From assembly GCF_021730395.1 (NCBI RefSeq), contig NC_069364.1:83467972-83531971 (forward strand): 64,000 bases of DNA, given 5' to 3'. The notes beneath the pieces are model-generated. The model did no database searches and was not told the DNA's origin. It worked only from the letters and a program-made list of their open reading frames with translations. Shown here piece by piece: positions 2,025-41,510 of this stretch. This DNA is from Mercenaria mercenaria. Taxonomy: Eukaryota. Position 1 is the stretch's first letter. Each line of letters opens with the position of its first letter. The translations under genes were made by a program, and so were the position numbers.

Positions 2025-3695
2025 ATTTCATGGAAACAAATATTCTGACTAATTTTCATTAAGATCGGATCAAAAATGTGGTGTCTTAAGTGTAAACAAG
2101 CATTTTCTTCAATTTGACCTAGTGACCTAGTTTCTGAGCTAAGATGACCAACATTCGAACTTGACCTAGATTTGATCAAGGCAATCATTCTGACTAAATT
2201 TCATCAACCTTGATTAAAAAATACAGCCTCTATCGCATACAAAACGTTTTTCTTTGATATATCCTAGCGACCTAGTTTTTGACCCAAGATGACCCATACT
2301 CAAACTTGACCTTTATTTCATCAAGGCTAGCATTCTGACCAAATTTCATGAAGATCCATTGAAAAATAGTCTCTATTACATATACAAATTTTTTTTTTTG
2401 ATTTGACCTAGTGACCTAGTTTTTGACCACAGATGACCCATATTCTAACTTGACCTAGATTCCGTCAAGGCAATCATTCTGACTGAATTTTATGAGAACC
2501 CAGTGTAAAATGCAGCCCCTATTGCATACACAAGGTTTTTCTTTAATTTGACCGGGTGACCTAGTTTTTTATCCCAAAAGACCCATATTCAAACTCCATC
2601 TAGATTTCATATAGACAAACATTCTGATTAAATTTCATGAAGATCCTATGTAAAATGCAGCCCCTATTGCATACACAAGGTTTTTATTTGATTTGACCTA
2701 GTGACCTAGTTTTTAATCCCTGATGATCCATATTCAAACTTGACCTAGATTTTATCAAGGCAATCATTCTGACCAAAACTCATGAAGATCAATTGAAAAA
2801 TACAGCCTCTATCGCATACACAAGGTTTTTCTTTGATTTGACCTAGTGACCTAGTTTTTGATCCCAGATGACCCATTTTCAAAACTAGCCTAGATTTCAT
2901 CAAGGTAATCATTCTGACCAAAATTTATAAAGATAAAATGAAATATACAGCTTCTATCGCATACACAAGGTTTTTTCTTGATTTGACCTAGTGACCTAGT
3001 TTTTGACCCCGGGTGACCCATTTTCAAACTTGGCCTATATTTCATCAAGGTTATCATTCTGACAAAATTTCATGAAGATCAATTGAAAAATACAGCCTCT
3101 ATCGCATACACAAGGTTTTTCCTTGATTTGACCTAGTGACCTAGTTTTTGATCCCAGATGACCCATTTTCAAACTCGGCCTAGACTTCATCAAGGTAATC
3201 ATTCTGACCAAAATTCATGAAGATAGAATGAAAAATACAGCCTCTATCGCATACACAAGGTTTTTCCTTGATTTGACCTAGTGACCTAGTTTTTGACCCC
3301 GGGTGACCCATTTTCAAACTTGGCCTAGATTTTATCAAGGTAATCATTCTGACAAAATTTCATGAAGATCAACTGAAAAATACAGCCTCTATCGCATACA
3401 CAAGGTTTTTCCTTGATTTGACCTAGTGACCTAGTTTTTGATCCCAGATGACCCATTTTCAAACTCGGCCTAGACTTCATCAAGGTTATCATTCTGACCA
3501 AAATTCATGAAGATAGAATGAAAAATACAGCCTCTATTGCATACACAAGGTTTTTCCTTGATTTGACCTAGTGACCTAGTTTTTGACCCCAGATGACCCA
3601 TTTTCGAACTCGGCCTAGATTTCATCAAGGTAATCATTCTGACCAAAATTCATGAAGATCAGTTGAAAAATACAGCCTCTATCGCATACACAAGC
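2025..3695. repeat. Satellite array, about 145-bp monomer, about 11.5 copies
   Basis: The period, measured between gacctagtgacctag occurrences, is 144-146 bp. The consensus is ..gatttgacctagtgacctagtttttgatcccagatgacccattttcaaact.ggcctagatttcatcaaggtaatcattctgaccaaaattcatgaagatcaattgaaaaatacagcctctatcgcatacacaaggttttt. It sits in a PARP4-like intron. Confidence 0.9.
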
Positions 3696-3799
3696 TAAAT
3701 GTTGACGGACGACAGACAGACGACAGACGACTGACGCCGGACATCAAGTGATCAGAAGGTGAGCTAATAACGAAGAACAAAAAGAATAATTTCACTATA

Positions 3800-4080
3800 A
3801 ACTGTCATACAGAACTTTAAACTTGAAATCTCTCTCTGAACAAGGGGTGTAACTCCATTATAAAACTTCTCCCAGATCCTAAATGAAATCTATTCTCTCT
3901 CTGTACAGGGGGCATAACTCCACTAGAAAATATCATTTAAACCTAAATGCAACCTATTCTCTCTGCAAAACAAAAGAACTTTATAATCCATCTATGGAGA
4001 AAAATGTATGGGAACAAATCCAAGTCCAAGGGCTATAACCCTTAAGGAATATGTGCAACGGCTATTCTCTCAATAGTCAA
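3800..4080. repeat. Degenerate tandem repeat of about 65 bp (..tattctctct.tacagggggcataactcca..aaaa..)
   Basis: About 4 diverged units. Confidence 0.5.
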
Positions 4081-4178
4081 AATGAAAACCATACCTTTGC
4101 AATTTGTTTATGTGATCATCTTTAAACCAAACTCTGCTTTTTAAACTAATTTTTAATTTGCTACGGCCAATAATTTAC

Positions 4179-4366
4179 CTAACTCCAACTGTGAATATCC
4201 TGGTATGTTGGCAATTTTTCCTGACACTGCTCAGCAACAGTTCCGAGTTGTTCATGTGTCCGTCAGAGATCAAGAGGACATTCTGCATGGAGCTCTCCGG
4301 TTTCATGAGGTAAAAAGTATGCAATGGTCGCACAACCTCTGTGTTACCCATAGTTGCTGAAAGACT
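4179..4366 (-). CDS. PARP4-like exon, VWA domain continued (SLSATMGNTEVVRPLHTFYLMKPESSMQNVLLISDGHMNNSELLLSSVRKNCQHTRIFTVGV)
   Basis: Acceptor ttcttcctgcag and donor GTTAG|GTAAAT. VWA blocks GGT(N/E) and (F/L)..DG are present. At least one small exon between 7655 and 4366 is still missing: the upstream exon ends in phase 1 and this one starts in phase 0. The gene continues below 4179. Confidence 0.7.
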
Positions 4367-4469
4367 CTGCAGGAAGAAAAAAACGATATTATTTCCATGT
4401 TAACCCTTGACCTGCTAAATTTCTAAAATGAACTGGTCCATCTTTCAATTTGAGCAATACCATTCATTA

Positions 4470-4610
4470 TTCAAAGGGGAATATTTACTGACTGAATAGT
4501 GGACAGTGCAGACCATGTGCAGGCTGATCTTGGTCTGCACTGGTCACAAAGGCAGGATCACTTGCCGCCAGCAGGCTTATGGTTAATGTCCTAAATCTAT
4601 AAAAACTCAT
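4470..4610. mobile_element. MITE-like repeat family B
   Basis: Colinear with 12-175, lacking an 11-bp insert. It lies in the PARP4-like intron just upstream of exon 4179-4366. Confidence 0.55.
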
Positions 4611-5649
4611 TATCACTCAATTATATAGAATGGCACTGGGCAACTGTTAAACCAGATATATTTAATAGGGATTAATTTTCATATCTTATAAAATTTATGA
4701 AAATTAGTCCTCACAAAAAAAGTATGATTTTAGATCTAATTACTTTGTAAGAAAAACTGATTACTCCTGTGAGGATTAAATCTGGCTTTTGAAAACTGTT
4801 TTTAAATACTGCAAAATGTTGGCAATGCAAAAATAGGACATTATAGTATTATCTTATTTCACAGTGATACAATGTCAGTATCGAGTTTCCTCAGCAGAAA
4901 ATACCAGTCCTGTTGTCTAGCTATGCTATCAGTCTGTATAAAGATGACCTCAATACATTTTGAATCCACAAATTCAGTGCTGTATTTATCAGTTATAATG
5001 TTCAGATTTTAAGACAAACTATGAGACATTTTTCAAAAGCTATCTTTTACACTGTTCTCAATACAGCAAATGTTAAATGTAGCAATACCTAGCTACAGCA
5101 AAATGTAATGTAATTTCCCTTAAAATGCAAAACTAAATTCATATTTGAACACTGAATGCTTTGTTACATGATGAAGATCTAAATCAAACAGAACCAGGAG
5201 CTGTGTTCAATAAACGCTCGATGTCCCCGGTGGCATCCTTGTCGATACAAAGCAACCTAAGTCCAAAACGAGGTCAAGGTCAAACTGAGGTCAGGTGATG
5301 TCTGAAGATGAGGGATGGTCACAGGTTACATCTGCATTAGTATCAAGTCATTCTAGTTAGGGGTATTGATGCTAGATGAAACAGTCCCATTTGGTTAACC
5401 TCGTACGGACGGACGAATGCATGCACGGACAAACGAAGGGGCATAGAAAGTGGAAACCTACAAGTCATCCAACACAACAAAAATGAAAATGTTGAAAAAC
5501 ATATTTCCTGCACTTATGGAGAATATATCTTTGAAAGTACAGTCAAAACTTAGACAATTTTATCAGCAAGACTGACAACGAAGACAAAACTCCGACTTGT
5601 ACACACAATTTACAAGAAACATCCAGTTTTCCAAACAATACTGTGTCAC

Positions 5650-6080
5650 ACCATGACAAACTCTGATACTGGTTTCATATTTACAACTTACCATGACAAA
5701 CTCTGATGCTGGTTTCATATTGACAACTTACCATGACAAACTCTGATGCTGGTTTCATATTTACAACTCACCATGACAAACTCTGATGCCGGTTTTATAT
5801 TGACAACTTACCATGACAAACTCTGATGATGGTTTCATATTGACAACTTACAATGACATACTCTGATGCTGGTTTCATACTGACAACTTACTATGACAAA
5901 CTCTGATGCTGGTTTCATATTGACAACTTACCATGACAAACTCTGATGCTGGTTTCATATTTACAACTTACCATGACAAACTCTGATGCTGGTTTCATAT
6001 TTACAACTTACCATGACAAACTCTGATGCTAGTTTCATATTACAACTTACCATGACAAACTCTGATGCTAGTCTCATATT
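5650..6080. repeat. Minisatellite, 40-bp unit about 10.5 times (ccatgacaaactctgatgctggtttcatatttacaactta)
   Basis: Exact 40-bp periodicity. Confidence 0.9.
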
Positions 6081-6399
6081 TCCTGCTGTTTTCACAACAC
6101 AAGATGGAAACAATTCTTTCCATGCTGAAAATAAAATGTGTATTATTAAATAAGTTTAGAATATAAGTCATTTAATTGTCAAAATATAGATACTGTCACA
6201 ACTTTATTTTTTTTAGAATTTTTATCCATAAACATTTTTTGTGCCTGTTCTTAAATCAAGGACAAGTTTATGTCACATTTAGGTAAATGGGCAACTGAAA
6301 CAAAATGCTATTAAATCCAAAACTAAAAGTACCAAACAGTCTTATGAGAAGATGCATATTCACAACACCTTTACAAATCAATAAAATTCTATCTCTCCA

Positions 6400-7140
6400 A
6401 CTGAGAGTATCTTTGACCTAGGACTACAAATGAAACAAGAGTGCCAGACTGTCACAAAATACGCCCACCATAGAACTTGGCCTAATTCAAGGGGCATAAT
6501 CCAAGAGTGCCTAGGGGGATTTGGGTGGTTATCATACTTGGCCAAGATATTATGCCCACAAACATTGTCAGCAAGTTTTGGAGAGTATCTTTGACCTAAG
6601 ACTATAAATGAAACAAGAGTGCCAGACTGTCACAAAATACGCCCGTTATCGAACTTGACCTATTCAAGGGCCATATTCCAAGAGTGCCTAAGGCGATTTG
6701 GCTGATTATCGATCTTGGCCGAGATATTATACCCATCAATATTGTCAGCAAGTTTGGTGAAGATCAGACGAAAACTGTCGGACTTGGAGAGCGGACAAAG
6801 CTAAATTTGCAGTTTTTCGAGTAATTCAAGGGCCAAAATCCAACAGTGCCTGGGGCGATTTGGCTGGTTATCGAACTTGGCCGAGATATTATGCCCACAA
6901 ACATTGTCAGCAAGTTTTGTGAAGATCGGATGAAAAATGTTGGACTTAGAGTGGACAAGGCCAAATTCGCAGTTTTTTGAGTAATTCAAGGGCCATAATC
7001 CAAGAGTGCCTGGGGCGATTTGGCTGGTTATCAAACTTGGCCGAGATATTATGCCCACAAACATTGTCAGCAAGTTTGGTGTAGATCCTATGAAAACTGT
7101 TCGACTTAGAGAGCGGACATGCTTTGGATGCTGCCCACTG
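6400..7140. repeat. Tandem array, about 160-180-bp monomer, 4 copies, related to the 145-bp satellite
   Basis: The unit is ..aattcaagggccataatccaagagtgcctggggcgatttggctggttatcgaacttggccgagatattatgcccacaaacattgtcagcaagtttggtgaagatc.gatgaaaa.tgt.ggacttagag.gcggacaa. The segment cattgtcagcaagtttggtgaagatc is homologous to cattctgaccaaaattcatgaagatc in the 145-bp satellite. Confidence 0.85.
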
Positions 7141-7654
7141 CCACGGGTGTTCACATAATATGCCCCGCTCTTTCAGAGACGGGCATATACAAAGGGTCAC
7201 CTTCTAACTAGTTGCAAGAAACCCATGAAAGTTGATGTTAGACTGGAATTCTCACCCAAACATTCTCAAATTACAGAGCAGAAACTATTGATCAATATTA
7301 GGTAATATAACATGTTAGAACACGTTTCAATTTTACTTTGTACACATATTAGTAGAGGGAATGCAGGGCAATCAATAACATTTTAACAGGTGATTCAAAG
7401 CAGATAGTGATAGAAATTTGTACTTTTCTGGGAGACTTTCCCTAAACATAGATGGATGTTCAAATAAAAATCAATGCGAGTATCCTATTGCTCTATGGTC
7501 TTATTGACAAACCCATATTAATGTAGAAAAAAATACTTTTCTATGAGACTCCTTCCCTAAACATAGATGGATGTTCAAGTGAAAATAAGTGGGGTTATCT
7601 TCTGCCTCTCTGGTAATATTGACCAACCCATATTTATATAGAAGAAACATTTAC

Positions 7655-7841
7655 CTGTTCCAAACACAACAACATTAAAGTTCCATGTAGGGGGTAAATG
7701 CTGGAGAGTCAGCAGCAAGACTTTCTTGGCACTGATGATGGCATCACCCTTCATAGAGTTTGACAGGTCCAGAAGTAAAATCACACTGACATCATCCGAC
7801 TCACAGGCCTCAAATTCCGGGTAAAATGTCAGCATACATGC
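7655..7841 (-). CDS. PARP4-like exon, start of the VWA domain with the MIDAS motif (ACMLTFYPEFEACESDDVSVILLLDLSNSMKGDAIISAKKVLLLTLQHLPPTWNFNVVVFGT)
   Basis: Acceptor ctctag and donor GGAACAG|GTAAAT. It carries the D-x-S-x-S metal-ion site (DLSNSM) plus the typical VWA beta1-alpha1 pattern and the FN..(V/I)FG(T/S) block seen in ITIH/VWA5A/PARP4 VWA domains. It overlaps ORF 7575..7835(-). Confidence 0.8.
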
Positions 7842-8179
7842 CTAGAGAACAATAAGGAAATGTACATGTTATTCATAGATCACTGAATCAATATTTAGTT
7901 TGAAATAATAAAATTGATCAACATGAAATTTCTGGTTTATTCCAAGAATGCTATTTTGCCAGAACATAACTTAAGAAAGATGAAATAAATCGGAAATCTA
8001 TAAATACAGATTTGACTTTGCAGACAGATGTGATTTCAAAATCCACCGAAAACAGTGTTATACCTGCTGATTTTGATCATCAGGTTTTCTCTTCACCCAC
8101 AATTCTAGACACATGTATTTCCACTAGATCACTGAGGAGTCACAAAATGTCGACATATTTTCATAATTTCAATACTTAC

Positions 8180-8317
8180 CTGGTGATTTTGGTCATCTGG
8201 TTTTCTCTCGACCCACATTCTAGGCACGTGTATTTCTGCTAGACCAATCAGAAGCTGGAACCCATCGGCAATAGACTCCCCTTCCATCATCTCTACAGTG
8301 GCTTTTGTTAATGTCCT
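8180..8317 (-). CDS. PARP4-like exon, region between VIT and VWA (RTLTKATVEMMEGESIADGFQLLIGLAEIHVPRMWVERKPDDQNHQ)
   Basis: Acceptor gtgatatag, with an in-frame TAG just upstream, and donor CACCAG|GTAAGT. 46 codons in phase 0, leading into the VWA exon. Confidence 0.6.
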
Positions 8318-8920
8318 CTATATCACATAAAATAGCTGATGCAAATCAAATTTGGAAAACTGTAAAAGCTTACTTAAATGCTCATTTTAACAATATAAAT
8401 ATAGAAAGATGTTTGCAATGAATTTATTTTCCCAACCTCTGGAAATTAGAGTCACTTGTGACTTCAAACGAGATGTTAACTTTAAGCAACATAATCTTCA
8501 TATTAATAGCCAGCTACAAAGTACAATTATCATTGTAGTGTATCAAATCATAAAATAAAAAAAAAACTATACAATTATATAGTTCTCAAATCAACAGAGA
8601 AAACCTACTGGTATATTAAGATAGTCTACAGGGACTTTACTTTTTTGTACCCAATCATAACATAAAAGTCTTATGCAATATTCAAGCAAGCATAAGAAAC
8701 CTGTCTGAAGCAATTAAACTTGCATATATTTACCAGAGTACTTGAAACCTAAGAGGAGCAAAAGACATACTGACAGAAGCTGCTGTACCAAAACATCAAG
8801 GCACTTAATGAAGTAGCACTTTTAAACCACAAACTTCCAAAGGAATAACCTTATAAAATTGATTAAAACCCAATAAAACTGCTGATAATCATTTGTGATT
8901 TTTGTCTATTATTAGCTCAC

Positions 8921-9034
8921 CTTGACTTTGATCTTCTGTGAGGGGCATTCAATTGACCTGATGTCAAAGGGCATCTCTATTGAAACCTGCACACTTGTCT
9001 CCCCTTGTGTGACCTCCACTGTCTCAGTTTCATG
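8921..9034 (-). CDS. PARP4-like exon, region between VIT and VWA (HETETVEVTQGETSVQVSIEMPFDIRSIECPSQKIKVK)
   Basis: Acceptor catttacag and donor GTCAAG|GTGAGC. 38 codons in phase 0; the other two frames contain stops. Confidence 0.55.
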
Positions 9035-9870
9035 CTGTAAATGTACTCAAATCATAACTCAAAAAGTCAAACAGATAAATTTTTAGGCACTCTTTTCTTA
9101 CCTCTGAAAATACAGTGAAACCCCTCTAAACCAGAACCCCTGAAAAGTGGTAACCCGTCAAACCACTTCAAACTGAACAAACACCTTGGTTCATAATAAT
9201 GTTCTTTTATTGAAAATAACCACTCTAAATTAGAATATCACTCAAAAGTGAATGTTTCCTTTGGTCCAGAGGTTGTTTTGTATATAGTTGTTCCACTGTA
9301 GCTGCATGCAACGTTATCACAGTTATGATGGACCAAGGTACAGTGATACTAGTGACTATGGACATCACATTTATATAATCCTACATTTTAACCATTCACA
9401 TGGTCTTCATCAGGAATACATGAACTACACACAACAACTGCCTGTGTTATTTCCATCATCTACCTGCACTATCTCATTCAATTACCTATTATTCCATAGT
9501 TAATTACTCAAGTTGTTTTTCTTAATTTATGTGTCATTTCCTATACTATGCTGTTTACTTTCCTTTAACTAACTGCGTAACCTACGCAGCATTCTTTTAA
9601 TAATCTGTCATTGCTCTAAGTTACTTATAGTTAATGTAAACTTGTATTTTAGTTATGTTACTTTTTATATGTAATGAAGTATGTTCAGAGTATGTTATTT
9701 CCCTAATCCCTTACCTGTGTAGTTCAGTCTTGTTTCTCATAAGGACAAGTGCTTTTTCCTTTCGTTATCTGTGTAACTTCCCTTACCTGTGTAGTTTCCA
9801 AATAATACAAGTATTCTTTCTCATGAATACAAGTGTTGTTTCCTTTCATTATCTGAGTCATTTCCCTTAC

Positions 9871-10032
9871 CTGTGTAGTTTCCTTTAAAGAATCTTTCTT
9901 CCATGGAGCGACACTTCCTGGCAATCTGAAACTAACCATCTCCCCTTCTACCTGTAATTCTGCCACATATGTGATCTTGATCAAGACCGTAGCTCCTGGT
10001 GGAAGATTGCCAACACTTACAGTAAACACATC
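9871..10032 (-). CDS. PARP4-like exon, VIT domain continued (DVFTVSVGNLPPGATVLIKITYVAELQVEGEMVSFRLPGSVAPWKKDSLKETTQ)
   Basis: Acceptor gatttcag and donor ACACAG|GTAAGG. VIT-domain block F.V.VGNLPP...V.I.I.YV.EL, 54 codons in phase 0. It overlaps ORF 9724..10029(-). Confidence 0.8.
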
Positions 10033-10835
10033 CTGAAATCAAATAAGAAACTTTTTTGAAGTCTGTGCACAAAAAGAATTTTACTTTTTCATTTAAGGCT
10101 TTATTCTGCATGACTAAATGAATGTTTAAACGTTCTCATCATTCTTTCATAGTCTCTGTAAACATCAAATATTGCATCACTGTTAAGAAAAACAACAACC
10201 TTATTTGCCACTCATATTCATCAGAAAATAAGACTTCAACTTACAAGAACCAAATTTGCAATACTGTTGTATATCATGGCATTGCATTTTCCATATGTAA
10301 TGGGTTTGTACTAGTTCAACATCTTTTAGAAGTTTGCCAAAATCATTTTTTTTTACATAAAATTACATGGACATTTTTTGGCATAAAATTAAAATTGCAT
10401 TGGACAAGTTAAGGTGAATAATGAGACTAACCCATACAGTTTAGGCCAAAAATAATTTCTAACAAAAATCCATGAAAATTGAGTTCTCTGAAAGTGACTT
10501 TTGGTACAAATTTATTGACATAAGATTTTTACAAGATATTCTTATAAATAACCAAAAATATTGTGCAGAAGGTAGTAAACTGTTGCAACGCTGCTGAAAT
10601 AATGCAGAAAATTTATATTCTTCTTGCATTTTTACCAATATCTAACTTTTGTTCTCACCAAGTTTATCATTTTTCTGTGTCATATATGCCAAACTGTGTG
10701 GAAATGACCACATTGAAAAATTTCACCCAAACTGTGGGTGAGTAGCTTTAAGAATTTAAAATATGTTCTTACAAGAAAAGAGCAAAAATAAAATTGTTCC
10801 TTGTGAAGTCCAGACTTATGATGCTATGTACTTAC

Positions 10836-11060: not shown

Positions 11061-11227
11061 CTGTTAAACAACAAAAGTCAAACATCTACATGTTGACTGT
11101 AAAAAAACATGTTGTATTTTTTTTTTATTCAAAGGGTCATAACTTGTGAAAATTCAACTAACTCTAAACCCATTTAATGTGTACAACTAATGACTGTTCC
11201 TGAGAAGTTTCATTTAAATCCTGCCAA

Positions 11228-15206: not shown

Positions 15207-16072
15207 TGGCGGTAAAGTTCTGTCGGCCGTGAGGTGAGCGGATACGGTGTCTGTATGTTTGCATTCAAGTTGCGTACTTTGGGGTATCATATGTTTACCA
15301 GTTTGTGTTAACTGGATAGTAAAAGGTTTTGCCCTAGTACTTGGCAATTCCTAGTGTTGCGTGTGTTGCGTACGTTGCGTTGCTCTCAGTGGTGTCACTT
15401 TGCCTTGCCTTGCCTTGCCTTGCCTTTCATTGACTCGTGTTGCGGTTTTGCTCATTCTCGGTGAAACCCGAAATGGGTGGAATGGTAGCTCGACGTTCAA
15501 TTGAAATTGTTGTGTGTTTGCATTTGAGTGATACCTGTTATAAAGTGCAAAGTGTCTTGTGTTGCTTTGCCTTTGAGTGACACCTGTTACAAAGTACAAA
15601 GTGTCTTGCGTTACTTTGCGTTGTTTGAGTGATACCTGTTACAAAGTACAAAGTGTCTTGCATTGCTTTGCCTTGTGGTCCGTTGTGTTATACTGCCTCG
15701 CTTTACATTGGCTAGGGTTGTGCATTTGACCGCATCCCGGTGACACCCGGGCTGGGTTGGATTCACAATTCGAAGTTCGATGGATTGCGCAGTTGCGTTG
15801 TTTTTGCAAGCCTTGGGTTGGTGCGTCTGTTCTCCTCTCGGTCGACGGATTTTGCTGTGCTTTTAACGACTCTACACGGTGAGACCCTTGTTGAGTCATG
15901 AGCGGCCGATCAACTCCCAATATTGTCAATATACTTTTACTGAATTTAATTAAATTATTACAAAATGTATCATGCGTATGTTTAACTATCGTTGAAAGTA
16001 TCAATGCATATTCTTGATGAATAAAGAGTGTTGTATGAGATAATTGGTTTTTTATTTGAGTAATAAAATAAT
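15207..16072. repeat. 866-bp direct repeat R, copy A (copy B at 17354-18213), inside the 7.8-kb PARP4-like intron
   Basis: tggcggtaaagttctgtcggccgtgaggtgagcgg...gagtaataaaataat is over 98% identical between copies. It contains a ccttg microsatellite and three 60-bp internal subrepeats (gagtgatacctgttacaaagtacaaagtgtcttgcgttactttgc). Confidence 0.9.
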
Positions 16073-16073
16073 G

Positions 16074-16320
16074 GAAATTATTTTAGAATTAAAATAATTT
16101 AATTTATTTTTTCTCAAACTGTTGCTCGTTAATTACCGTCTGCTAGTTTATTAAATTGTCGTCTGTTTTCGTAGATAAACGTGTCATCGATATTGTTACA
16201 CTTGGCTGATCTGAACTGGTTCCTATTGATACTGGTACCCAGTCGATATAATATAAATACCAATAATCTCGTGCAGTTCTCTCACATTTTGCTAGCTACA
16301 CCGTCGGTAACGTCAAAACT
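16074..16320. repeat. Duplicated promoter-like segment P, copy 2
   Basis: See copy 1. Confidence 0.85.
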
Positions 16321-17353: not shown

Positions 17354-18213
17354 TGGCGGTAAAGTTCTGTCGGCCGTGAGGTGAGCGGATACGGTGTCTG
17401 TATGTTTGCATTCAAGTTGCGTACTTTGGGGTATCATATGTTTACCAGTTTGTGTTAACTGGATAGTAAAAGGTTCTGCCCTAGTACTTGGCAATTCCTA
17501 GTGTTGCATGTGTTGCGTATGTTGCGTTGCTCTCAGTGGTGTCACTTTGCCTTGCCTTGCCTTGCCTTTCATTGACTCGTGTTGCGGTTTCGCTCATTCT
17601 CGGTGAAACCCGAAATGGGTGGAATGGTAGCTCGACGTTCAATTGAAATTGTTGTGTGTTTGCATTTGAGTGATACCTGTTATAAAGTGCAAAGTGTCTT
17701 GTGTTGCTTTGCCTTTGAGTGACACCTGTTACAAAGTACAAAGTGTCTTGCGTTACTTTGCGTTGTTTGAGTGATACCTGTTACAAAGTACAAAGTGTCT
17801 TGCATTGCTTTGCCTTGTGGTCCGTTGTGTTATACTGCCTCGCTTTACATTGGCTAGGGTTGTGCATTTGACCGCATCCCGGTGACACCCGGGCTGGGTT
17901 GGATTCACAATTCAAGTTCGATGGATTGCGCAGTTGCGTTGTTTTTGCAAGCCTTGGGTTGGTGCGTCTGTTCTCCTCTCGGTCGACGGATTTTGCTGTG
18001 CTTTTAACGACTCTACACGGTGAGACCCTTGTTGAGTCATGAGCGGCCGATCAACTCCCAATATTGTCAATATACTTTTACTGAATTTAATTAAATTATT
18101 ACAAAATGTATCATGCGTATGTTTAACTATCGTTGTAAGTATCAATGCATATTCTTGATGAATAAAGAGTGTTGTATGAGATAATTGGTTTTTATTTTGA
18201 GTAATAAAATAAT
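17354..18213. repeat. 866-bp direct repeat R, copy B
   Basis: See copy A. The spacing between copies is 2147 bp. Confidence 0.9.
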
Positions 18214-18454
18214 ATAGAAGAATTAGTTCCTATTTCAAAGCACAATATGTCTTTTCTTCACTTTGACATAAAAATACAACAATCAATGGTGTTCAACTTT
18301 TTATAAAGCATATGTCATATTCCAGAACTGGTATCTCTGTTAAAACAAGCTTACGCTAGAAAGAAGTCACGTAAACGTGCGGTGACGTCAAAAGTTTTTG
18401 TTGCGACCAAGAAAGAGCACTACTATATTTTATCTACTGTTTTAGATTAAGGGC

Positions 18455-24865: not shown

Positions 24866-25417
24866 CTAGTGACAAAATGTGTTTTAAATATAAACATTGT
24901 TTAACCAGCTTCAGTGTTACTGTCACACAAGTGTGTTAATTATGGGCAGGATTTGAATGACACATATAAAGAGTGCTGCGAGTTTCTAAACCATTTAATG
25001 AATACTGTACTATTATTTAATTTTTGAGGGCATTGAATTTCATGGTATGGGCTAGATGGGGTATTTTGCAGAGATATAAATCTGCAGAGTTAAGGTAGTG
25101 GGCCTGTGAGGACAATCTCAAATTAATGTTCAATTAAGTATACTCTGTAAGCAATTTTCAGCATTCTCCAGTATGAACAGAAAGTCAGGTGCTTGTGTGA
25201 GCTACAGTATCCTCCAAGGAATGCTAAAACCTTATACAGGTAAACATATTTCCACGGAAACTACCGACTGCAATTATGTTTCCACTACCTTAAACTTCTG
25301 AAGGGATTTTGCTTGTTCGTTAGGTTTAATTTTGTCGACTGACTCAACTGCAGAGATAAGTCCCCCACCAATATTAATGATTTCAAAGTATACAATAACT
25401 ACTTATCACAACTGAAT

Positions 25418-25665
25418 ATGATATGAGCCGAGCCATGAGAAAACCAACATAGTGTGTTTGCGACCAGCATGGATCCAGACCAGCTTGCACATCCACGCAG
25501 TCTGGTCAGGATCCATGCTGTATGCTAACAGTTTCTCTAATTCCAATAGGCTTTGAAAGCGAACAGCATGGATCCTGACCAGACTGCGCGGATGGGCAGG
25601 CTGGTCTGGATCCATGCTGGTCGCAAACCCACTATGTTGGTTTTCTCATGGCATGACTCATAATT
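25418..25665. mobile_element. Palindromic MITE family A, long copy
   Basis: Same termini as the copy at 1027, with an internally duplicated palindrome core (ggatccagaccagc.tgcacatcc.cgcagtctggtcaggatccatgctg). It shares extended flanks (atatgagccg.gcc) with the copy at 57176. Confidence 0.7.
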
Positions 25666-27585: not shown

Positions 27586-27649
27586 GTTATGGAACTCATC
27601 AGTTGTAATCAAACTATCAACAATTATTACTGTTCAGTATTCATCTGCA

Positions 27650-28500
27650 TGTTAACCTTTAGCCTACTGGTTGCAAGTGATGTTGCCTTTGTGGCCAGTG
27701 TAGATCAAGATCAGCCTGCATGCTAACCTTTAGTCTACTGACTGCAAGTGATGTAGCCTTTGTGGCCAGTGTAGATCAAGATCAGCCTGCATGTTAACCT
27801 TTAGCCTACTGACTGCAAGTGATGTTGCCTTTGTGGCCAGTGTAGATCAAGATCAGCCTGCATGTTAACCTTTAGCCTACTGACTGCAAGTGATGTAGCC
27901 TTTGTGGCCAGTGTAGATCAAGATCAGCCTGCATGTTAACCTTTAGCCTACTGACTGCATGTGATGTTGCCTTTGTGGCCAGTGTAGATCAAGATCAGCC
28001 TGCATGTTAACCTTTAGCCTACTGACTGTAAGTGATGTTGCCTTTGTGGCCAGTGTAGATCAAGATCAGCCTGCATGTTAACCTTTAGCCTACTGACTGT
28101 AAGTGATGTTGCCTTTGTGGCCAGTGTAGATCAAGATCAGCCTGCATGTTAACCTTTAGCCTACTGACTGCAAGTGATGTTGCCTTTGTGGCCAGTGTAG
28201 ATCAAGATCAGCCTGCATGTTAACCTTTAGCCTACTGACTGCAAGTGATGTTGCCTTTGTGGCCAGTGTAGATCAAGATCAGCCTGCATGTTAACCTTTA
28301 GCCTACTGACTGCAAGTGATGTTGCCTTTGTGGCCAGTGTAGATCAAGATCAGCCTGCATGTTAACCTTTAGCCTACTGACTGCAAGTGATGTTGCCTTT
28401 GTGGCCAGTGTAGATCAAGATCAGCCTGCATGTTAACCTTAGCCTACTGACTGCAAGTGATGTAGCCTTTGTGGCCAGTGTAGATCAAGATCAGCCTGCA
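27650..28500. repeat. Satellite, about 62-bp monomer, about 14 copies, derived from MITE family B
   Basis: The unit ttaacctttagcctactgactgcaagtgatgttgcctttgtggccagtgtagatcaagatcagcctgcatg is the rc of the family-B segment gcaggctgatcttggtctgcactggtcacaaaggcaggatcacttgc..cagcaggcttatggttaa. Confidence 0.85.
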
Positions 28501-28801
28501 TGTCCCTGCATGCTCACCTTGGTCTGCACTGTTCCACAAGTCTGTAAATTTTCAGTGAACACCCCTTTGAATAATAAGTGGTACTTCTCAAAATGAATGA
28601 TGGACCAGTCCATTTTAGAACTATAGCAAGGTAAAGGTTACCAGTAAGTTATAGTTAACATCCAAGAACCACAGACAAATTATTAAATGGTTAAGTGATT
28701 GCTGTCACTCTGTAAGTTTTTTACTAACAGCACAAACACCCTATTTGCCGTCAAAATACTTAAAGAACCCCAGAAACTATCCTAGAAGTCTTAATACTTA
28801 C

Positions 28802-32596: not shown

Positions 32597-34319
32597 GTAA
32601 CACACGAGTATGTATTGTCTAACTGATTTATTGCATGATTAAAAAGAGTAAAATTAACACATTTTTAAATATCATAAATTTAAAATATTTAAAAATATTT
32701 CCCCTCTTGAGCCTCCCTTAGGAACATTTCATGATAAACCCCCAACTGCCTTATAAAAGCCAGAAGATGGCGCTGGGCAGGTTTTTATATAAATTATGCA
32801 TGCTTCACATCAGAGATCCCTTTTTCAAAATTTTAAATAAATTACTGAAAAAAAAGTTATAAAAAAGTGAAATACACATTGAAACATTCTTTATTGATTG
32901 TTGTAATTATTTTTTAAAACAAAAAGTTGTAAAATAGAGTTTCAGAAATAATTTAAAGTAACTGCTAAAAATTTGAATTTGCCAAGAGGCGCTAACGATG
33001 TCATGAACCCTGGAGAAATAGAGAATGCAAACAATTCCCACGTGGCTAATTTTATCAACAAACCTGATAAGCAGAAGGTTTCATGTAGGCTATCAATGGA
33101 ATTAACACCTAGAGCATATTTTTAAACTGAATAGAATATCATAATCATTTTTGCAGTTATATTTTTATGTTACTTAAAAAATCAAGTTTTAAATCAAGAT
33201 GTAGAGAACTAAACTACAGACATACAGTAATCAATTATTTCAAATAGCTTATCATTTCCAATACCTTATCACAGCAACACTTGCTAATTTATGTATTGTT
33301 CTACATCCCAGACAGAGAAAACTGTGAGCGATACCTGTGTGCAACGGAATTTAGAGCACGGCTAACCGTGGCGATACCAGAATTTAGAAAACAGAAAACT
33401 TCAAAGGAAAATGCCGCAGTCATGCAATAATGTACATTCTCTTCCAAATTCGAATATTAAAGTATCAGTAGAGTGGCAGAAACAGTAAGTGATGTTATTC
33501 CACCTGGAGTGTTCCTCCTTATCCAAACTAACACAGATTTTTCTGTTGGTACTTTTATTTTATAATACTGATTATTTTCACATCTCAACAAGATATATAA
33601 ACAATCCATTGCTAGCATTTTTTTTTCAGTGAGCTGTATGATGAACATTCATGCAGACCAAATGTGTATTTTCTTATTTGAGATATGTTGCAGCCAAGTC
33701 AAATGTGAAACTCACAGAAGATAAATGATAGGTCTCATATTGATGACAAAGACATGCAAAGAAAATTTTGACTCACTGACAGTCTTGAAATATTTTAAGC
33801 AATACACTATTTTTAATGTTTATGCAAAATGAGTCTTTATGATATGCCTTACATTTTTATCATGACACAAAAATGGTACTTGTTTCTTATGAACATAATT
33901 TATTGCTGGATGTGCTTGAGCTATGTGAAGTTGAAGAGACAGATTCAAATATATAAGAGACCTGGGTGTGATACCCTAAGCTAGCTCACTGCAAACTAGT
34001 CCCAATCTGTGACTCTAGTTATCTCCCCTAACAATCAGGGTAATCAACGTACTTCAGTCTTTGAGACATGATTGCTAACACAATGGTGATTTAATGGCGA
34101 AAAGGAAAATATTTCTGAATATTAGCAAATTTGCTTTTGTGCTTGGTTATGTGTAATACACCATATGCCATGTCAGGAGCACTTTGCAGTACCTGAAAAG
34201 TCAAGCACTGACCTAATGGTGATGTCACATCTTTATTACGTCACTGTTTGCACATTTGTTTCAGCATCATGTACTGGTACTTGATAGCAGTAAACTGAGA
34301 GCACAACATTTCAGGCCAA

Positions 34320-34990
34320 TTCTAAGTGTATTAGCGCAAAATAATTTAACTAGACAAATGACCACCCTAGACAGTCAAGTGTATTATCACTAGACAATTG
34401 ACCACCCTAGACAGTCAAGTGTATTATCACTAGACAACTGACCACCCTAGACAGTCAAGTGTATTGTCATTAGACAATTGACCACCCTAGACAGTCAAGT
34501 GTATTGTCACTGGACAATTGACCACCCTAGACAGTCAAGTGTATTGTCACTGGACAATTGACCACCCTAGACAGTCAAGTGTATTGTCACTAGACAATTG
34601 ACCACCCTAGACAGTCAAGTGTATTATCACTAGACAATTGACCACCCTAGACAGTCAAGTGTATTATCACTAGACAAATGACCATCCTAGACAGTCAAGT
34701 GTATTATCAACAGTCAAGTGTATTATCACTAGACAAATGACCACCCTAGACCGTCAAGTGTATTATCATTAGACAAATGACCACCCTAGACAGTAAAGTG
34801 TATTATCATTAGACAAATGACCATCCTAGACAGTCAAGTGTATTATCACTAGACCAATGACCACCCTAGACAGTCAAGTGTATTATCATTAGACAATTGA
34901 CAACCCTAGACAGTCAAGTATATTATCACTAGACAATTGACCACCCTAGACAGTTAAGTGTATTATCATTAGACAAACTAGAGCTATCAC
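34320..34990. repeat. 40-bp satellite, block 1 (ctagacaattgaccaccctagacagtcaagtgtattatca)
   Basis: About 16 head-to-tail 40-bp units. Confidence 0.9.
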
Positions 34991-35039
34991 TAAAGATGAT
35001 GAATATACACCCCCCCCGCATGCACTGACACAGTACATT

Positions 35040-35790
35040 GCAATTTGACGCACACAAGATTGCATAGTTATGTGGACTGTATGTATATAGACTGTATGTA
35101 TACAGTATAGTAACAAAAAACAAAGTTCCATAACTATACAGAATATTTACCTAAAAGAATGTAACATGCACCATGCACAACTAGGGTTGGAACTGATCAC
35201 TTGTGTGAAGTTTCATTAAATTGTGTGCAAGGGTTTGGTAGATTAGGCACGCACAAGATTGCATATGCAGACTGTATGTACATAGTATGTTAACAAGAAA
35301 CAAAGTCCCATAACTCTGCAATTTTTGTCGCTGAAAGAACCTAACATGCCCCATGCACAACTACTGTTGTTACTGATCACTTGTGTGAAGTTTCATTAAA
35401 TTGTGTCAAGGGGATGAGGAGAGGTGGTGCGCACAAGATTGTGTCTATGTATATAGTATAGTAACAAAAAAACAAAGTCCCATAACTCTGCAAATTTTTT
35501 TTCTAAAAGAACCTAACATGCCCCATGCACAACTACTGTTGGTACTGATCACTTGTGTGAAATTTCATTAAATTGTGTCAAGGGGATGAGGAGAGATGGT
35601 GCGCACAAGATTGTGTCTATGTATATAGTATAGTAACAAAAAAAAAAAGTCCCATAACTCTGCAAATTTTTTTTCTAAAAGAACCTAACATGCCCCATGC
35701 ACAACTACTGTTGGTACTGATCACTTGTGTGAAGTTTCAAAAATTCTGTCAAGGGGATAAGGAGAGATGGTGCGCACAAGATTGCGTCTA
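35040..35790. repeat. Tandem repeat, about 172-bp unit, 4 copies, interrupting the 40-bp satellite
   Basis: The unit contains gcacaagattg..tatgtatatagtatagtaacaaaaaaacaaagtcccataactctgcaa...cctaacatgccccatgcacaactactgttggtactgatcacttgtgtgaagtttcattaaattgtgtcaaggggatgaggagag.tggtgc. It ends in a GACA/GACG tract at 35785-35815. Confidence 0.85.
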
Positions 35791-35864
35791 CGGACAGACG
35801 GACAGACAGACAACCTGAAACCAGTATACCCCCCCCCCTTACAACTTTGTTGTCGCGGGGTACA

Positions 35865-38800
35865 ATGACCATCTTAGACAGTCAAGTGTATTATCACTAG
35901 ACAAATGACTACCCTAGACAGTCAAATGTATTATCATTAGACAAAAGACCATCCTAGACAGCCAAGTGTATTATCACTAGACAAATGACTACCCTAGACA
36001 GTCAAATGTATTATCATTAGACAAAAGACCACCCTAGACAGTCAAATGTATTATCACAGTAGACAGTCAAGTATATTATCACTAGACAAGTGACCACCCT
36101 AGACAGTCAAATGTATTATCACAGTAGACAGTCAAGTATATTATCACTAGACAAGTGACCACCCTAGACAGTCAAATGTATTATCACTAGACAAATGACC
36201 ACCCTAGACAGTCAAGTGTATTATCACTAGACAAATGACCACCCTAGACAGCCAAGAGTATTATCACTAGACAAATGACCACCCTAGACAGTCATCAGTG
36301 TATTATCACTAGACAAATGACCACCCTAGACAGCCAAGTGTATTATCACTAGACAAATGACCACCCTAGACAGTCAAATGTATTATCACTAGACAAATGA
36401 CCACCCTAGACAGTCAAGTATATCATCACTAGACAAATGACCACTCTAGACAGTCAAATGTATTATCACAGTGGACAGTCAAATGTGTTATCACTAGACA
36501 AATGACCACCCTAGACAGCCAAATGTATTTAATATCACTAGACAAATGACCACCCTAGACAGCCAAGTGTATCACAGTAGACAGTCAAGTGTGTTATCAC
36601 TAGACAAATAACCACCCTAGACAGCCAAATGTATTTAATATCACTAGACAAATGACCACCCTAGACAGCCAAGTGTATTATCACTAGACAAATGACCCCC
36701 CTAGACAGTAAAGTGTATTATCATTAGACAAATGACCATCCTAGTCAGTCAACTATATTATCACTAGACAAATGACCACCCTAGACAGTTAAGTGTATTA
36801 TCATTAGACAAATGACCATCCTAGACAGTCAAGTGTATTATCATTAGACAAAAGACCACCATAGACAGTCAAATTATTATCAGAGTAGACAGTCAAGTAT
36901 ATTATCACTAGACAAATGACCACCCTAGACAGTCAAACGTATTATCACTAGACAAATGACCACCCTAGACAGTCAAGTGTATTATCACTAGAAAAATGAC
37001 CACCCTAGACAGCCAAGTGTATTATCACTAGACAAATGACCACCCTAGACAGTCAAGTGTATTATCATTAGACAAATGACCACCCTAGACAGTCAAGTAT
37101 ATTATCACTAGACAAATGACCACCCTAGACAGTCAAATGTATTATCACAGTAGACAGTCAAGTGTGTTATCACTAGACAAATGACCACCCTAGACAGCCA
37201 AATGTATTTAATATCACTAGACAAATGACCACCCTAGACAGTAAAGTGTATTATCATTAGACAAATGACCACCCTAGACAGTCAAGTATATTATCACTAG
37301 ACAACTGACCACCCTAGACAGTCAAATGTATTATCACAGTAGACAGTCAAGTGTGTTATCACTAGACAAATGACCACCCTAGACAGTCAAGTGTATTATC
37401 ACTAGACAAATGACCACCCTAGACAGCCAAGTGTATTATCACTAGATAAATGACCACCCTAGACAGTCAAATGTATTTAATATCACTAGACAAATGACCA
37501 CCCTAGACAGTCAAGTGTATTATCACTAGACAAATGACCACCCTAGACAGTCAAATGTATTTAATATCACTAGACAAATGACCACCCTAGACATTCAAGT
37601 GTATTATCACTAGACAAATGACCACCCTAGACAGTCAAATGTATTTAATATCACTAGACAAATGACCACCCTTGACTGTCAAGTGTATTATCACTAGACA
37701 AATGACCAACCTAGACAGTCAAGTGTATTATCACTAGACAAATGACCATCCTAGACAGTCAAATGTATTTAATATCACTAGACAAATGACCACCCTAGAC
37801 AGCCAAGTGTATTATCACTAGACAATTGACCACCCTAGACAGTCAAATGTATTTAATATCACTAGACAAATGACCACCCTAGACAGCCAAGTGTATTATC
37901 ACTAGACAAATGACCACCCTAGACAGTCAAATGTATTTAATATCACTAGACAAATGACCACCCTAGACAGTCAAGTGTATTATCACTAGACAAATGACCA
38001 CCCTAGACAGTCAAATGTATTAATATCACTAGACAAATGACCACCCTAGACAGTCAAGTGTATTATCACTAGACAAATGACCACCCTAGACAGTCAAATG
38101 TATTTAATATCACTAGACAAATGACCACCCTTGACAGTCAAATGTATTTAATATCACTAGACAAATGACCACCCTAGACAGTCAAATGTATTTAATATCA
38201 CTAGACAAATGACCACCCTAGACAGTCAAGTGTATTATCACTAGACAAATGACCACCCTTGACTGTCAAGTGTATTATCACTAGACAAACGACCACCCTA
38301 GACAGTCAAGTGTATTATCACTAGACAAATGACCATCCTAGACAGTCAAATGTATTTAATATCACTAGACAAATGACCACGCTAGACAGCCAAGTGTATT
38401 ATCACTAGACAAATGACCACCCTAGACAGTCAAATGTATTTAATATCACTAGACAAATGACCACCCTAGACAGTCAAATGTATTATCACTAGACAAATGA
38501 CCACCCTAGACAGTCAAGTGTATTATCACTAGACAAATGACCATCCTAGACTGTCAAAGTAGTTTAATATCACTAGACAAATGACCACCCTAGACAGTCA
38601 ATGTATTTAATACACTAGACAAATGACCACCCTAGACAGCAAGTTATTCACAAAATACCACTGCTGTCAAGTATTAATCACTAGACAAACGACCACCTAG
38701 ACAGTCAAGTGTATTATCACTAGACAAATGACCACACCATATTAGACAAATGACCACGCTAGACAGTCAAGTGTATTATCACTAGACAAATGACCACCCT

Positions 38801-39215
38801 AGACAGTCAAATGTATTTCATATCACTAGACACATGATCAACCTAGACAGTCAAATGTATTATCATTAGACAAAAGACCACCCTAGACAGTCAAATGCAT
38901 TATCACAGTAGACAGTCAAGTGTATTATCACTAGACAAATGACCACCCTAGACAGTCAAATGTATTTCATATCACTAGACACATGATCAACCTAGACAGT
39001 CAATGTATTATCACTAGACAAAAGACCACCCTAGTACATGCCTAAGTAGTATTATTATCACTAGACAAATGACCACCCTATGACAGTCAAGTGTATTTGA
39101 TCCACCTAACACAAATTAGCACCAAATCCACTAGACAGCAAGTGTATTATCTAAATCCACTAAGGTACAACAAATGACCACCTAGATCAAGTGTATTATC
39201 ACTAGACAAATAAGT
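35865..39215. repeat. 40-bp satellite, block 2 (about 84 units, with variants gtcaaatgtatttaatatcactagacaaatgaccaccctagaca)
   Basis: Continuous 40-bp periodicity over 3.3 kb. Confidence 0.95.
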
Positions 39216-39484
39216 GAATGAAGTATTGCCATGCAATACTAAGTCCCTTACTGGAAGGCACCTAATTTTCTCTACTGCAGTATAACATAATGAACTGATA
39301 TTTGTCAGTGATGTATAAACAATATTGTACTATACTAATCCCCATTGATAACGTGGTTCCCGCCGAAACGCAAGGACGAGTCTAATTCATGATAACTGAT
39401 GTAATAACAATTCATTATGCATGCACATTACTTGACAAGCAAATATTAGTATTTCTTTCATTTTAGATATCCACTGTGTATATG

Positions 39485-39572
39485 GCAACATAGCTCAGTT
39501 GGGTAAAATGCAGACAACAGCTGGATATCAGCAAATCGTTTTATGGTTTCGAATCCTCATGAGTTTTTTTCA
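39485..39572 (+). other. tRNA-like sequence (degenerate, SINE-head-like)
   Basis: gcaacatagctcagttgggtaaaatgcag...ggtttcgaatcc. D-box and T-box elements are present but no acceptor pairing. It converges on a second tRNA-like copy on the minus strand 260 bp away. Confidence 0.4.
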
Positions 39573-39827
39573 GAATTTTTTTTTGTTTTCTTTTTCTATT
39601 CATTTTCATTTTTGCTTCCGTATTTTTGTTTGTTTCTTTGATGGTTTGTATTTATATAACACAATATTGTGTTCATTACATGTATTCGTATGGCTTAAGT
39701 GCATGCATTTAATCAATATCATCTTTGATATATAATAAACTGCCATACCGCAGTAGATACCTCTCTGTCGTGTTGTCACAGAGCTCATGAAGGAATCTTA
39801 TTTTTTATGCAAAAGTGAAAAAAAAAT

Positions 39828-39915
39828 TAAATGTCGATGGTGAGTTTCGAATCCACACGGCAAAAGATCTGTTGAACATGGACAGTATGCTTTACCACTG
39901 AGCTAATTCGTAATT
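39828..39915 (-). other. tRNA-like sequence (degenerate), convergent partner
   Basis: The rc reads gaattagctcagtggtaaagcat...ggattcgaaactcacc. Confidence 0.4.
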
Positions 39916-40229
39916 GGTACAAAATCTAGAAATATTTAGATTGTAACATGTTAGAAAAATGTTGAATTCCCTATGTCCCAGTTTCATCTATATATAGTCA
40001 TGTTTGTAAATATCAAATTATTGTTGGGGCATAGTATATGTTATAACAACACACTTGGATTAAAATGTGCATATATAAAAACCCACAGTTGTTTTCATAT
40101 TGAATTGTTTTGGCTGATTATAAAAATGTTATCATGTAAGTTATTTATAGTAACAACAAAGGGAAATTAATCTTAAAAAAAAAACAAAAAAAAACAAGAG
40201 ATCACAGAGTGATCTTGACGCCCACCATT

Positions 40230-41510
40230 GAGCCATTTCTGATTGTTCCAAATTTCAAGACTAGCTCAAGGTCAAATTTCATTTCAGTACACATCACTGT
40301 GCATGTGGCCTATGCATGTGGTCCAAATTTGAAAGCTGTAGCTTGAGAAATGTGAAAGAAGGTCACAAGACCAATTTCAAGGTCAAAGTTCATTTCGGTA
40401 TACAAAACTATGCATATGCTTCAAATTTGAAGCCTGTAGCTTTAGAAATGTGAAAGTAGGTCACTAGGTCAATCTCAAGATCAAAATTCATTTCGGTACA
40501 CAAAACTATGCATGTGGTCCAAATTTGAGGGCTGTAACTTGAGAAATGTGAAAGTAGGTCACTAGGTCAAAATCAAGGTCAAATTTCATTTCGGAACACA
40601 AAACTATGCATGTGGTCCAAATTTGAAGCCTGTACCTTCAAAAATGTGAAAGTAGGTCACTAGGTCAATGTCAAGGTCAAAGTGTTTTTCAGTACACAAA
40701 ACTATGCATGTGGTCCAAATTTGAAGGTTGTAGCTTGAGAAATGTGAAAGTAGGTCACTAGGTCAATGTCAAGGTCAAAGTTTCTTCGGTACACAAAACT
40801 ATGCATGTGGTCCAAATTTGAAGGTTGTAGCCTGAGAAATGTGAAAGTAGGTCACTAGGTCAAAATCAAGGTCAAATTTCATTTCGAAACACAAAACTAT
40901 GCATGTGGTACAAATTTGAAAGCTGTAGCTTGAGAAATGTGAAAGAAGGTCACAAGACCAATTTCAAGGTCAAAGTTCATTTCGGTATACAAAACTATGC
41001 ATGTGGTCCAAATTTGAAGGCTGTAGCTTGAGAAATGTGAAAGTAGGTCACTAGGTCAATGTCAAGGTCAAAGTTTTTTTCGGTACACAAAACTATATGC
41101 ATGTGGTCCAAATTTGAAGGCTGTAGCTTGAGAAATGTGAAAGTAGGTCACTAGGTCAAAATCAAGGTCAAATTTCATTTCGGAACACAAAACTATGCAT
41201 GTGGTCCAACATTGAAGCCTGTACCTTCAAAAATGTGAAAGTAGGTCACTAGGTCAATGTCAATGTCAAAGTTTTTTTCCGTGCACAAAACTATGCATGT
41301 GGTCCAAATTTGAAGCCTGTACCTTCAAAAATAAGAAAGTAGGTCACTAGGTCAATGTCAATGTCAAAGTTTTTTTCAGTGCACAAAACTATGCATGTGG
41401 TCCAAATTTGAAGGCTGTAGCTACAGAAATGTGGAAGTATGTCACTAGGTCAAAATCAAGGTCAACTCATGTCAATGTTCATCTTGCCACTCAAAACTAT
41501 ACATGTGGTC
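40230..41510. repeat. Satellite, about 100-bp monomer, about 13 copies, related in inverted orientation to the 145-bp satellite at 2025-3695
   Basis: The unit is gaaatgtgaaagtaggtcactaggtcaaaatcaaggtcaaatttcatttcggaacacaaaactatgcatgtggtccaaatttgaaggctgtagcttga. The segment ggtcactaggtcaaa.tcaagg matches the rc of the 145-bp monomer (ccttgatttgacctagtgacc). Confidence 0.8.

Follow-up and report, generated by a model that had tools for sequence, protein, structure and literature searches.

We analyzed a stretch of 64,000 nucleotides (hereafter the window) from Mercenaria mercenaria (NCBI RefSeq assembly GCF_021730395.1, contig NC_069364.1, positions 83,467,972 to 83,531,971 of the forward strand). 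The window contains a PARP4-like gene on the minus strand, with exon-like open reading frames (ORFs) from 31868 down to 1180, and arrays of tandem repeats both in its introns and upstream of it. The best matches of the concatenated ORFs are molluscan PARP4-like proteins (BRCT, PARP, VIT and VWA domains), and the protein is only 44–52% identical to any databank relative. The subject of this work is the origin of three of these arrays, which we designate A (145-bp monomers), B (160-bp monomers) and C (98-bp monomers), together with a fourth element, D, that was added to the set.

An earlier reading of the window from its letters alone (the sequence-only reading) had described A, B and C as related satellite families, inverted on either side of the gene and spread by a mobile carrier. 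Its array positions are close to ours. Tandem Repeats Finder (TRF) reports A at 2112–3694 (period 145, 10.9 copies, 86% matches), B at 6483–7111 (period 160, 3.8 copies) and C at 40310–41465 (period 98, 11.8 copies, with a higher-order period of 293 bp). Degenerate edge monomers enlarge A and C to the spans given in Table 1. For C the array stood, and its period is 98 bp by TRF instead of the 100 bp proposed. The minus-strand exon map and the protein matches agree with the gene context described earlier: A is intronic, as is B, and C is situated some 8.4 kb upstream of the start codon. The arrays in the window are 0.6–1.7 kb long and are located within or close to a gene.

Conserved ends of the arrays and their copies at other loci

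The arrays are very probably carried as central tandem-repeat modules by non-autonomous rolling-circle transposons of the Helentron type (HINEs). This conclusion is based on the sequences that flank them. On the left side of each array on the plus strand we found A-rich host DNA, CAAGAG, a short palindrome and a conserved 10–12-mer. On the right side, A and D have a (GACG/GACA)n or (ACGG/ACAG)n microsatellite and then the left 10–12-mer in reverse complement. In minus-strand reading, an element begins with the 5′ subterminal repeat (with a hairpin in intact copies) and a GTCN-type microsatellite, continues with the tandem repeats and a variable leader, and closes with the 3′ subterminal repeat, a palindrome and CTCTTG, beyond which lies T-rich host DNA. 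In element A the subterminal pair is GCTCACCTGAT against ATCAGaaGGTGAGC (3751–3764). Its 3′ palindrome has a 7-bp stem (z = −3.6; none of 200 shuffles was as stable) and is conserved across loci. The palindrome of C also has a 7-bp stem (z = −2.6). Element B retains a 5′ hairpin, ATATGCCCCGCTCT-ttc-AGAGACGGGCATAT, at 7158–7188. Element D is inserted exactly within one unit of a 40-bp satellite (TAGACAAA / TGACC), and comparison with the neighbouring units, which serve as the empty site, reveals no target-site duplication (TSD).

The same ends occur elsewhere. A metagenome scan with the 16-mer TTGACCTAGTGACCTA retrieved at least 120 contigs, many of them clearly mollusc-like host DNA. All counts of foreign arrays, heads and tails below are among the matches listed. 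There are 56 A-like arrays with 75–80% identity to A and a median size of 4.4 monomers (range 0.6–12.6). Of the 40 arrays with sufficient sequence upstream, 23 have an element head, and 19 of 42 have a tail, compared with 1.8% and 0.4%, respectively, of random windows from the same contigs. CAAGAGGGCCCAGAGGGCCCTGGAACGCTCACCTGAG directly preceded by AA is common to 28 heads, whose preceding flanks are unrelated. About 22 tails read ...CAAATGTTGAC-(GACG/CACG)n-...AGCTCACCATGAGCACTTCGTGCTCAGGTGAGCTAA and are then followed by unrelated sequence. The ends of window element A match these conserved ends, i.e., the head in 28 and the tail in about 22 foreign loci. The sequence-only reading had proposed looking for short dispersed arrays with conserved non-repetitive ends, and had named a lack of conserved flanks across loci as the contrary outcome; heads and tails are conserved at many loci, and the surrounding DNA is unrelated.

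Two further loci, L123 and L124, were found using the A-array ORF as a protein query and then fetching the encoding contigs. Both have the head subtype of window A, CAAGAGGGCCAAGATGGCCCTAGGTCGCTCACCTGAG (with the GGCCAAGATGGCC palindrome), and the homology begins exactly at CAAGAGG after three different flanks in the window, L123 and L124. L123 retains the intact 5′ hairpin that is deleted from window A. It also contains a B-type element inserted without a TSD into the A-rich linker of a C-like array. As a whole, L123 (ENA ERZ27257093 k141_231008) presents A-type and B-type HINEs in tandem, with single C-like 98-bp units between them.

The features characteristic of HINEs can be followed through these copies. 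A 5′ subterminal inverted repeat (subTIR) with an adjacent inverted-repeat (IR) hairpin was found in the foreign tails and L123, where it reads AGCTCACCATGAGCAC-ttcg-GTGCTCAGGTGAGCT, and in B; A has no IR, and the 5′ end of C is missing. The left-flank microsatellite is present in A, D and about 22 foreign tails and absent from the truncated C. The 3′ subTIR is complementary to the 5′ one in A and in the foreign loci, where GCTCACCTGAG and CTCAGGTGAGC form a perfect 11-bp complementary pair, and it is accompanied by a palindrome, with stable stems in A and C. The orientation of arrays relative to their flanks is constant: in all A-like arrays with a detected head, the head, the C-like leader (if any) and the array are on one strand. 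Insertion without a TSD at T-rich or TT sites is seen for D and for the B-type element of L123, and A-runs precede the foreign heads on the plus strand. Dispersed copies with conserved ends and unrelated flanks were observed in the foreign contigs. The mobile carrier suggested earlier, Helitron/Helentron-borne or borne by a miniature inverted-repeat transposable element (MITE), is thereby supported in its Helentron form by the sharp ends conserved at unrelated loci and the precise insertion of D.

That the carriers are instead cut-and-paste MITEs or tRNA-derived short interspersed elements (SINEs) with tandem repeats is very improbable. Their short subterminal inverted repeats, modular structure, internal repeats, small size and absence of coding sequence would suit such elements. 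However, neither D nor the B-type insertion of L123 has a TSD, and the inverted repeats are subterminal, whereas terminal inverted repeats with a TSD would be expected of a MITE. The asymmetry of the ends, with a palindrome at one and a microsatellite at the other, fits HINEs. ARAGORN finds no tRNA-like head in A–D, and there is no poly-A tail. In addition, pearl, DTC84 and MgE are now placed with HINEs in the literature.

Several observations weigh against the assignment of the arrays to HINEs. A scan of nine long ORFs of the window with Pfam gave one reverse-transcriptase fragment only and no Rep/helicase, and no autonomous Helentron was linked to the carrier ends. The loci used for comparison come from host DNA in metagenomes, not from the source genome. 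Both ends were detected under strict patterns in only 7 of 27 fully contained foreign arrays. Element A keeps its 5′ subTIR, and the hairpin partner (IR) present in its relatives, i.e., about 22 foreign tails and L123, is deleted. The 3′ palindromes of B and D are weak on folding. In element C we found no microsatellite and no 5′ end, and it joins the 40-bp satellite via a common CCCTAG. Finally, the exact terminal nucleotides are ambiguous by 1–2 bases within A/T runs.

According to the HINE interpretation, the Rep/helicase of an autonomous Helentron would have mobilized the copies in trans, and they would have inserted without target duplication at T-rich sites within two introns of the PARP4-like gene and in its upstream region.

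Table 1. Coordinates and composition of the HINE-like elements of the window
Feature	Position	Strand	Description
Carrier termini consensus			TTAGCTCACCTGAG...CTCAGGTGAGC-palindrome-CTCTTG (minus-strand reading)
Element A	1950–3767	-	non-autonomous Helentron of HINE-like type, 1.8 kb, complete though decayed; in an intron, on the strand of the PARP4-like gene
A right flank (3′ end in Helentron sense)	1950–1986	-	CTCTTG 1950–1955 (CAAGAG on +); palindrome AGGGCCA-aga-TGGCCCT 1954–1970; 3′ subterminal repeat GCTCACCTGAT 1976–1986
Array A	2023–3694	-	145-bp monomers, ~11.5 copies
A left flank (5′ end)	3704–3767	-	microsatellite (GACG/GACA)n 3704–3741; 5′ subterminal repeat ATCAGAAGGTGAGC 3751–3764; end ...GCTAA 3767
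Box in A	2114–3582	-	AAACTAGGTCACTAGGTCA, 9 copies
Element B	6403–7189	-	HINE-like; head duplicated (CAAGAG 6436, 6614); 160-bp array 6483–7119 (monomers 160–178 bp, 3.8 copies); exact ends uncertain
Element C	40195–41811	-	5′-truncated HINE-like; terminus CAAGAG 40195–40200; palindrome AGATCAC-aga-GTGATCT 40199–40215; array about 40230–41531 (98 bp, 12 copies); ~1.7 BIV160/Cg170-like units 41535–41811
Box in C	40453–41354	+	AAAGTAGGTCACTAGGTCA, 9 exact copies; inverted relative to the carrier compared with A
Element D	34978–35865	-	HINE-like; array of 4 172-bp monomers 35095–35790; microsatellite (ACGG/ACAG)n 35790–35813

Relationships of the monomers and the shared box

The inverted core that the sequence-only reading had noticed in A and C is real. 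With no more than one mismatch, the 16-mer used for the scan has 19 matches in the window, 9 in A (+), 10 in C (−) and none elsewhere, while 0.01 are expected. How far the similarity of the monomers extends beyond this box was judged with stiff gap scoring and score-based shuffles; a cheap-gap semi-global alignment gave identities of about 35%, equal to those of shuffles.

A and B in the same orientation align over about 68 columns (z = 10 versus shuffles), with a global score of 139 (shuffles 26 ± 19). A profile built from 75 A-like monomers of foreign contigs only recovers every A monomer of the window (E = 1e-22 to 1e-32) and matches the B monomers on the same strand at profile positions 34–136 (E = 6e-14 to 6e-6). 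Judged by these comparisons, the relationship is genuine and covers most of the monomer, A and B being diverged versions of one monomer family, as had been supposed of the 160–180-bp array. In B, the first "period" of 177 bp reflects a 178-bp piece that is duplicated in tandem (6403–6580 versus 6581–6758) and comprises flank, element head and partial monomer; the microsatellite of B is degenerate.

The relationship between A and C is of another kind. The sole significant local match is an inverted 20-mer with 19 of 20 positions identical. The foreign A profile matches C at positions 2–22 only, on the minus strand (E about 6e-4), and the profile of C matches A only around the box. If the 16-bp box is removed, the score of A against the reverse complement of C is equalled by 63 of 300 shuffles. 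Identity over the alignment columns is 46%, below the 60% that the sequence-only reading had set as a limit for related families, so its claim for A and C fails by its own measure. By sequence, C is a different repeat that has only a box of about 20 bp in common with A. The possibility that C is an inverted copy of the whole A monomer was ruled out by the span of the profile match and by the shuffles with the box removed. The C box with about 35 additional nucleotides resembles, in reverse, another repeat family of about 145 bp from foreign loci (E = 1e-5 to 1e-3), and the C unit may have been acquired when another repeat was captured or rearranged in reverse orientation. Because the similarity is confined to the box, the link between A and C runs via modular assembly of the carriers and not via descent of one satellite from the other.

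The C unit itself has counterparts elsewhere. The C profile matches six foreign loci (L015, L099, L074, L118, L012 and L075) over nearly its full length, with E = 1e-6 to 1e-15. Just downstream of each of these matches, and on its strand, there is an A-like array, and an element head is seen upstream of the match in L015, L074 and L012, and by eye in L099. The C(+)/A(+) arrangement recurs within single foreign elements. L086 is a complete element consisting of a head, a leader, four C-like units, about three BIV160-like units, a microsatellite and a hairpin tail. Element C of the window has the same order: the head at 40195, twelve C units and about 1.7 BIV160-like units at 41535–41811. Outside the window, C-like units thus either precede A-like arrays as a leader or form the first array, with BIV160-like repeats after it. 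A protein-database search with the C-array ORF yielded no further C arrays.

We consider it unlikely that C is an independent 98-bp satellite and that the CAAGAG head at 40195 belongs to a separate, abutting truncated element, with HINEs using such arrays as landing sites. Such an account agrees with L123, where a B-type HINE splits a C-like array that also borders on an A-type HINE, with the missing 5′ end of the window element, with the failure of the protein-level search to give more C arrays, and with the head subtype (..GACGCCCACC), which was not found with C arrays elsewhere. L086, a complete element in the window order, speaks against it, and so do the C-like units that stand between head and array in A-type elements at no fewer than six loci. 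In the window, moreover, the C array begins 35 bp past the head, and BIV160-like units come next, an order shared with L086.

Ends and repeats are thus shown to be combined modularly. Ends of the A type carry BIV160-like instead of A-like repeats in L041, L050, L054 and L057. B-like repeats have GCTCACCTG-type ends in L123 and ACGCCCACC-type ends in window B, i.e., one family is found with two end types. The head subtype of window B and C (CAAGAG-palindrome-ACGCCCRCC) has only a loose counterpart, in L058. Carriers A, B, C and D are all on the minus strand, and the same orientation of four or five carriers has no statistical meaning. Since the carriers are co-oriented and the C units hold the box in inverted orientation with respect to their carrier, the "opposite orientation" described earlier is a property of the box within modules and not of insertions: the inversion of the box between A and C holds, and the supposed insertion of copies in opposite directions does not.

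Local amplification has acted as well. In A, the six right-hand monomers beside the microsatellite form a 290-bp dimeric higher-order repeat, with pairs 97% and 99% identical, and the monomers toward the 3′ end are diverged (68–85% identical). C contains a duplicated 587-bp segment, the two copies of which are 99% identical. The 290-bp dimers and the 587-bp and 178-bp duplications show local amplification by unequal exchange after insertion and explain the unusually long arrays. The earlier statement that local slippage alone is insufficient therefore stands as to the carrier origin, with the addition that local amplification contributed. It is nevertheless extremely improbable that all of the arrays are ordinary satellites made in place by slippage and unequal crossing-over, with the box arising by convergence or chance. 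Higher-order repeats and monomer pairs with 97–99% identity do indicate recent local amplification, and the box, a tandem duplication of an 8-mer (TGACCTAG twice), could recur. But the frequency of the box is far above chance, dozens of loci with unrelated flanks have the conserved ends in common, and one head is found in three contexts.

The box, AAA[C/G]TAGGTCACTAGGTCA (AAA[C/G]TAGGTCA-CT-AGGTCA), corresponds to the vertebrate ROR element, whose consensus is WAWNTAGGTCA (PMC6956161), followed by a second AGGTCA with a spacing of 2, which is the "RevDR2" arrangement of Rev-erb. This pattern is present in 18 monomers of the window, where none is expected, and in 65 of the 123 fetched loci; of these 123, the scan with the 16-mer, which makes up most of the pattern, had supplied 120. 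In independently retrieved loci the box is the most conserved part of A-family monomers (1.76 bits versus a mean of 1.40). A speculative reading, with only a slim chance of being right, is that the box is conserved as a binding site for ROR/HR3 or Rev-erb/E75. If the mollusc receptors do bind it, HINE arrays would scatter clusters of clock-related receptor sites into introns and upstream regions. A full-text literature search with the box sequence found one unrelated paper, on rhinovirus, and nothing else.

The window contains other repeats. At 34349–39200 and 41812–42892 there is a large satellite of 40-bp units (TAGACAGTCAAGTGTATTATCACTAGACAAATGACCACCC), which has higher-order variants of 65/84/105/124 bp and is split by D and by a 2.6-kb block holding C. 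Two convergent HINE-like elements with CAAGAG heads at 60339 (+) and 62146 (−) and repeats of about 190 bp of another family (..TGACCTTGACCTTTGACCTAC..) are located at 60337–62148; this pair is interrupted by a tRNA-Ser-like sequence at 60750–60819 (ARAGORN) and an (AC)23 microsatellite at 61064–61109. The intron that contains B also holds a 40-bp array at 5650–6081 (10.8 copies, 93% matches), which is unrelated to the other 40-bp satellite and has no evident HINE ends in its flanks. Another intron of the PARP4-like gene holds a very homogeneous 71-bp array at 27645–28503 (12 copies, 97% matches); its left flank is tRNA-like by eye without an ARAGORN call, and no HINE ends were seen there. A foldback-type element at 43322–44729 has 154-nt terminal inverted arms (91% complementary) and interior subrepeats of about 20 bp (GTAAACCTAGGTTCACG...) in both orientations. 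Inverted arms of about 465 nt (52826–53289 and 55561–56025, 95–98% complementary) enclose about 2.3 kb at 52826–56025, and the RVT_1 reverse-transcriptase fragment (E = 1.7e-5) is just upstream of them at 51847–52062 (−). Near-identical direct duplications, with near-identical ORFs in both pairs, are found at 15400–16110 / 17540–18230, where TRF reports identical arrays at 15517–15674 and 17659–17816, and at 48850–49470 / 49825–50380; these pairs suggest recent segmental or transposon duplications. A dispersed repeat with the translation ..NSMDPDQTARMCRLVWIHAGRK.TMLVFS.. is present at about 830–1180, 25409–25645 and 57063–57422, in both orientations.

Comparison with known tandem-repeat transposons

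The window would represent another mollusc lineage in which Helentron-type carriers, and not local generation, spread satellite-like repeats through genes. As an example of modular assembly, it shows one set of ends joined to different repeats, a single repeat type that has more than one kind of end, and a leader unit that was expanded into an array of its own. Such arrays are better annotated as transposon cargo than as independent satellites, and shared short boxes are not evidence of satellite descent.

The closest known system is Cg_HINE of Crassostrea gigas (Vojvoda Zeljko et al. 2020, PMC7492417), with which the "Helitron-N_CGi" entries of Repbase may be grouped. In Cg_HINE the left flank consists of a 5′ subTIR, an IR and a GTCY/GTCK-type microsatellite, and the right flank of a 3′ subTIR (11–12 bp) and a palindrome; there is no TSD, and the targets are T-rich or TT sites. 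The repeats are 140–180 bp long (147 bp in cluster CL6), the mean array has 3.6 of them, and in some elements one array directly follows another. Different repeats can share the same flanks, and copies are found in introns and near genes (PMC7492417). The carriers described here resemble Cg_HINE in module order, absence of a TSD, T-rich targets and short arrays (median 4.4 monomers in the foreign loci, among the matches listed), as well as in the occurrence of double arrays, in flanks shared by different repeats and in copies within introns or near genes. They differ in having the microsatellite directly beside the array and the variable leader on the 3′ side, and in the length of arrays A and C of the window (11–12 monomers). 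In addition, each repeat cluster of C. gigas kept one flank pair (PMC7492417), whereas B-like repeats have different ends in the window and in L123. The box and the subTIR had no match in the supplement of PMC7492417, of which sheets CL3–CL13 were searched in part only.

A modular structure is also described for pearl (CvA, CvE and others; Crassostrea virginica and Anadara trapezia), DTC84 (Donax trunculus) and MgE (Mytilus galloprovincialis), which contain up to about six repeats of about 160 bp related to satellite monomers and a microsatellite-like segment, and which were first classified as MITEs and later as HINEs. Their likeness to our carriers is in modular build, by description only. 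The units of about 165 bp at 41535–41811 resemble BIV160/Cg170/HindIII: they match both published BIV160 primers with 2–3 mismatches (41553–41577, 41718–41742, 41608–41628), and by eye they are similar to the CL1 (Cg170-type) array. Only these 1.7 units belong there, while arrays A, B and C match neither primer. DINE-1 of Drosophila is described as the prototype of non-autonomous Helentrons with tandem repeats, whose central repeats can expand into satellites. It belongs to another phylum and has no sequence relation to the elements studied here, and autonomous partners are known for DINE-1 and none for our carriers. The phenomenon is thus already published for Cg_HINE, pearl, DTC84 and MgE, and it is the sequences that differ here.

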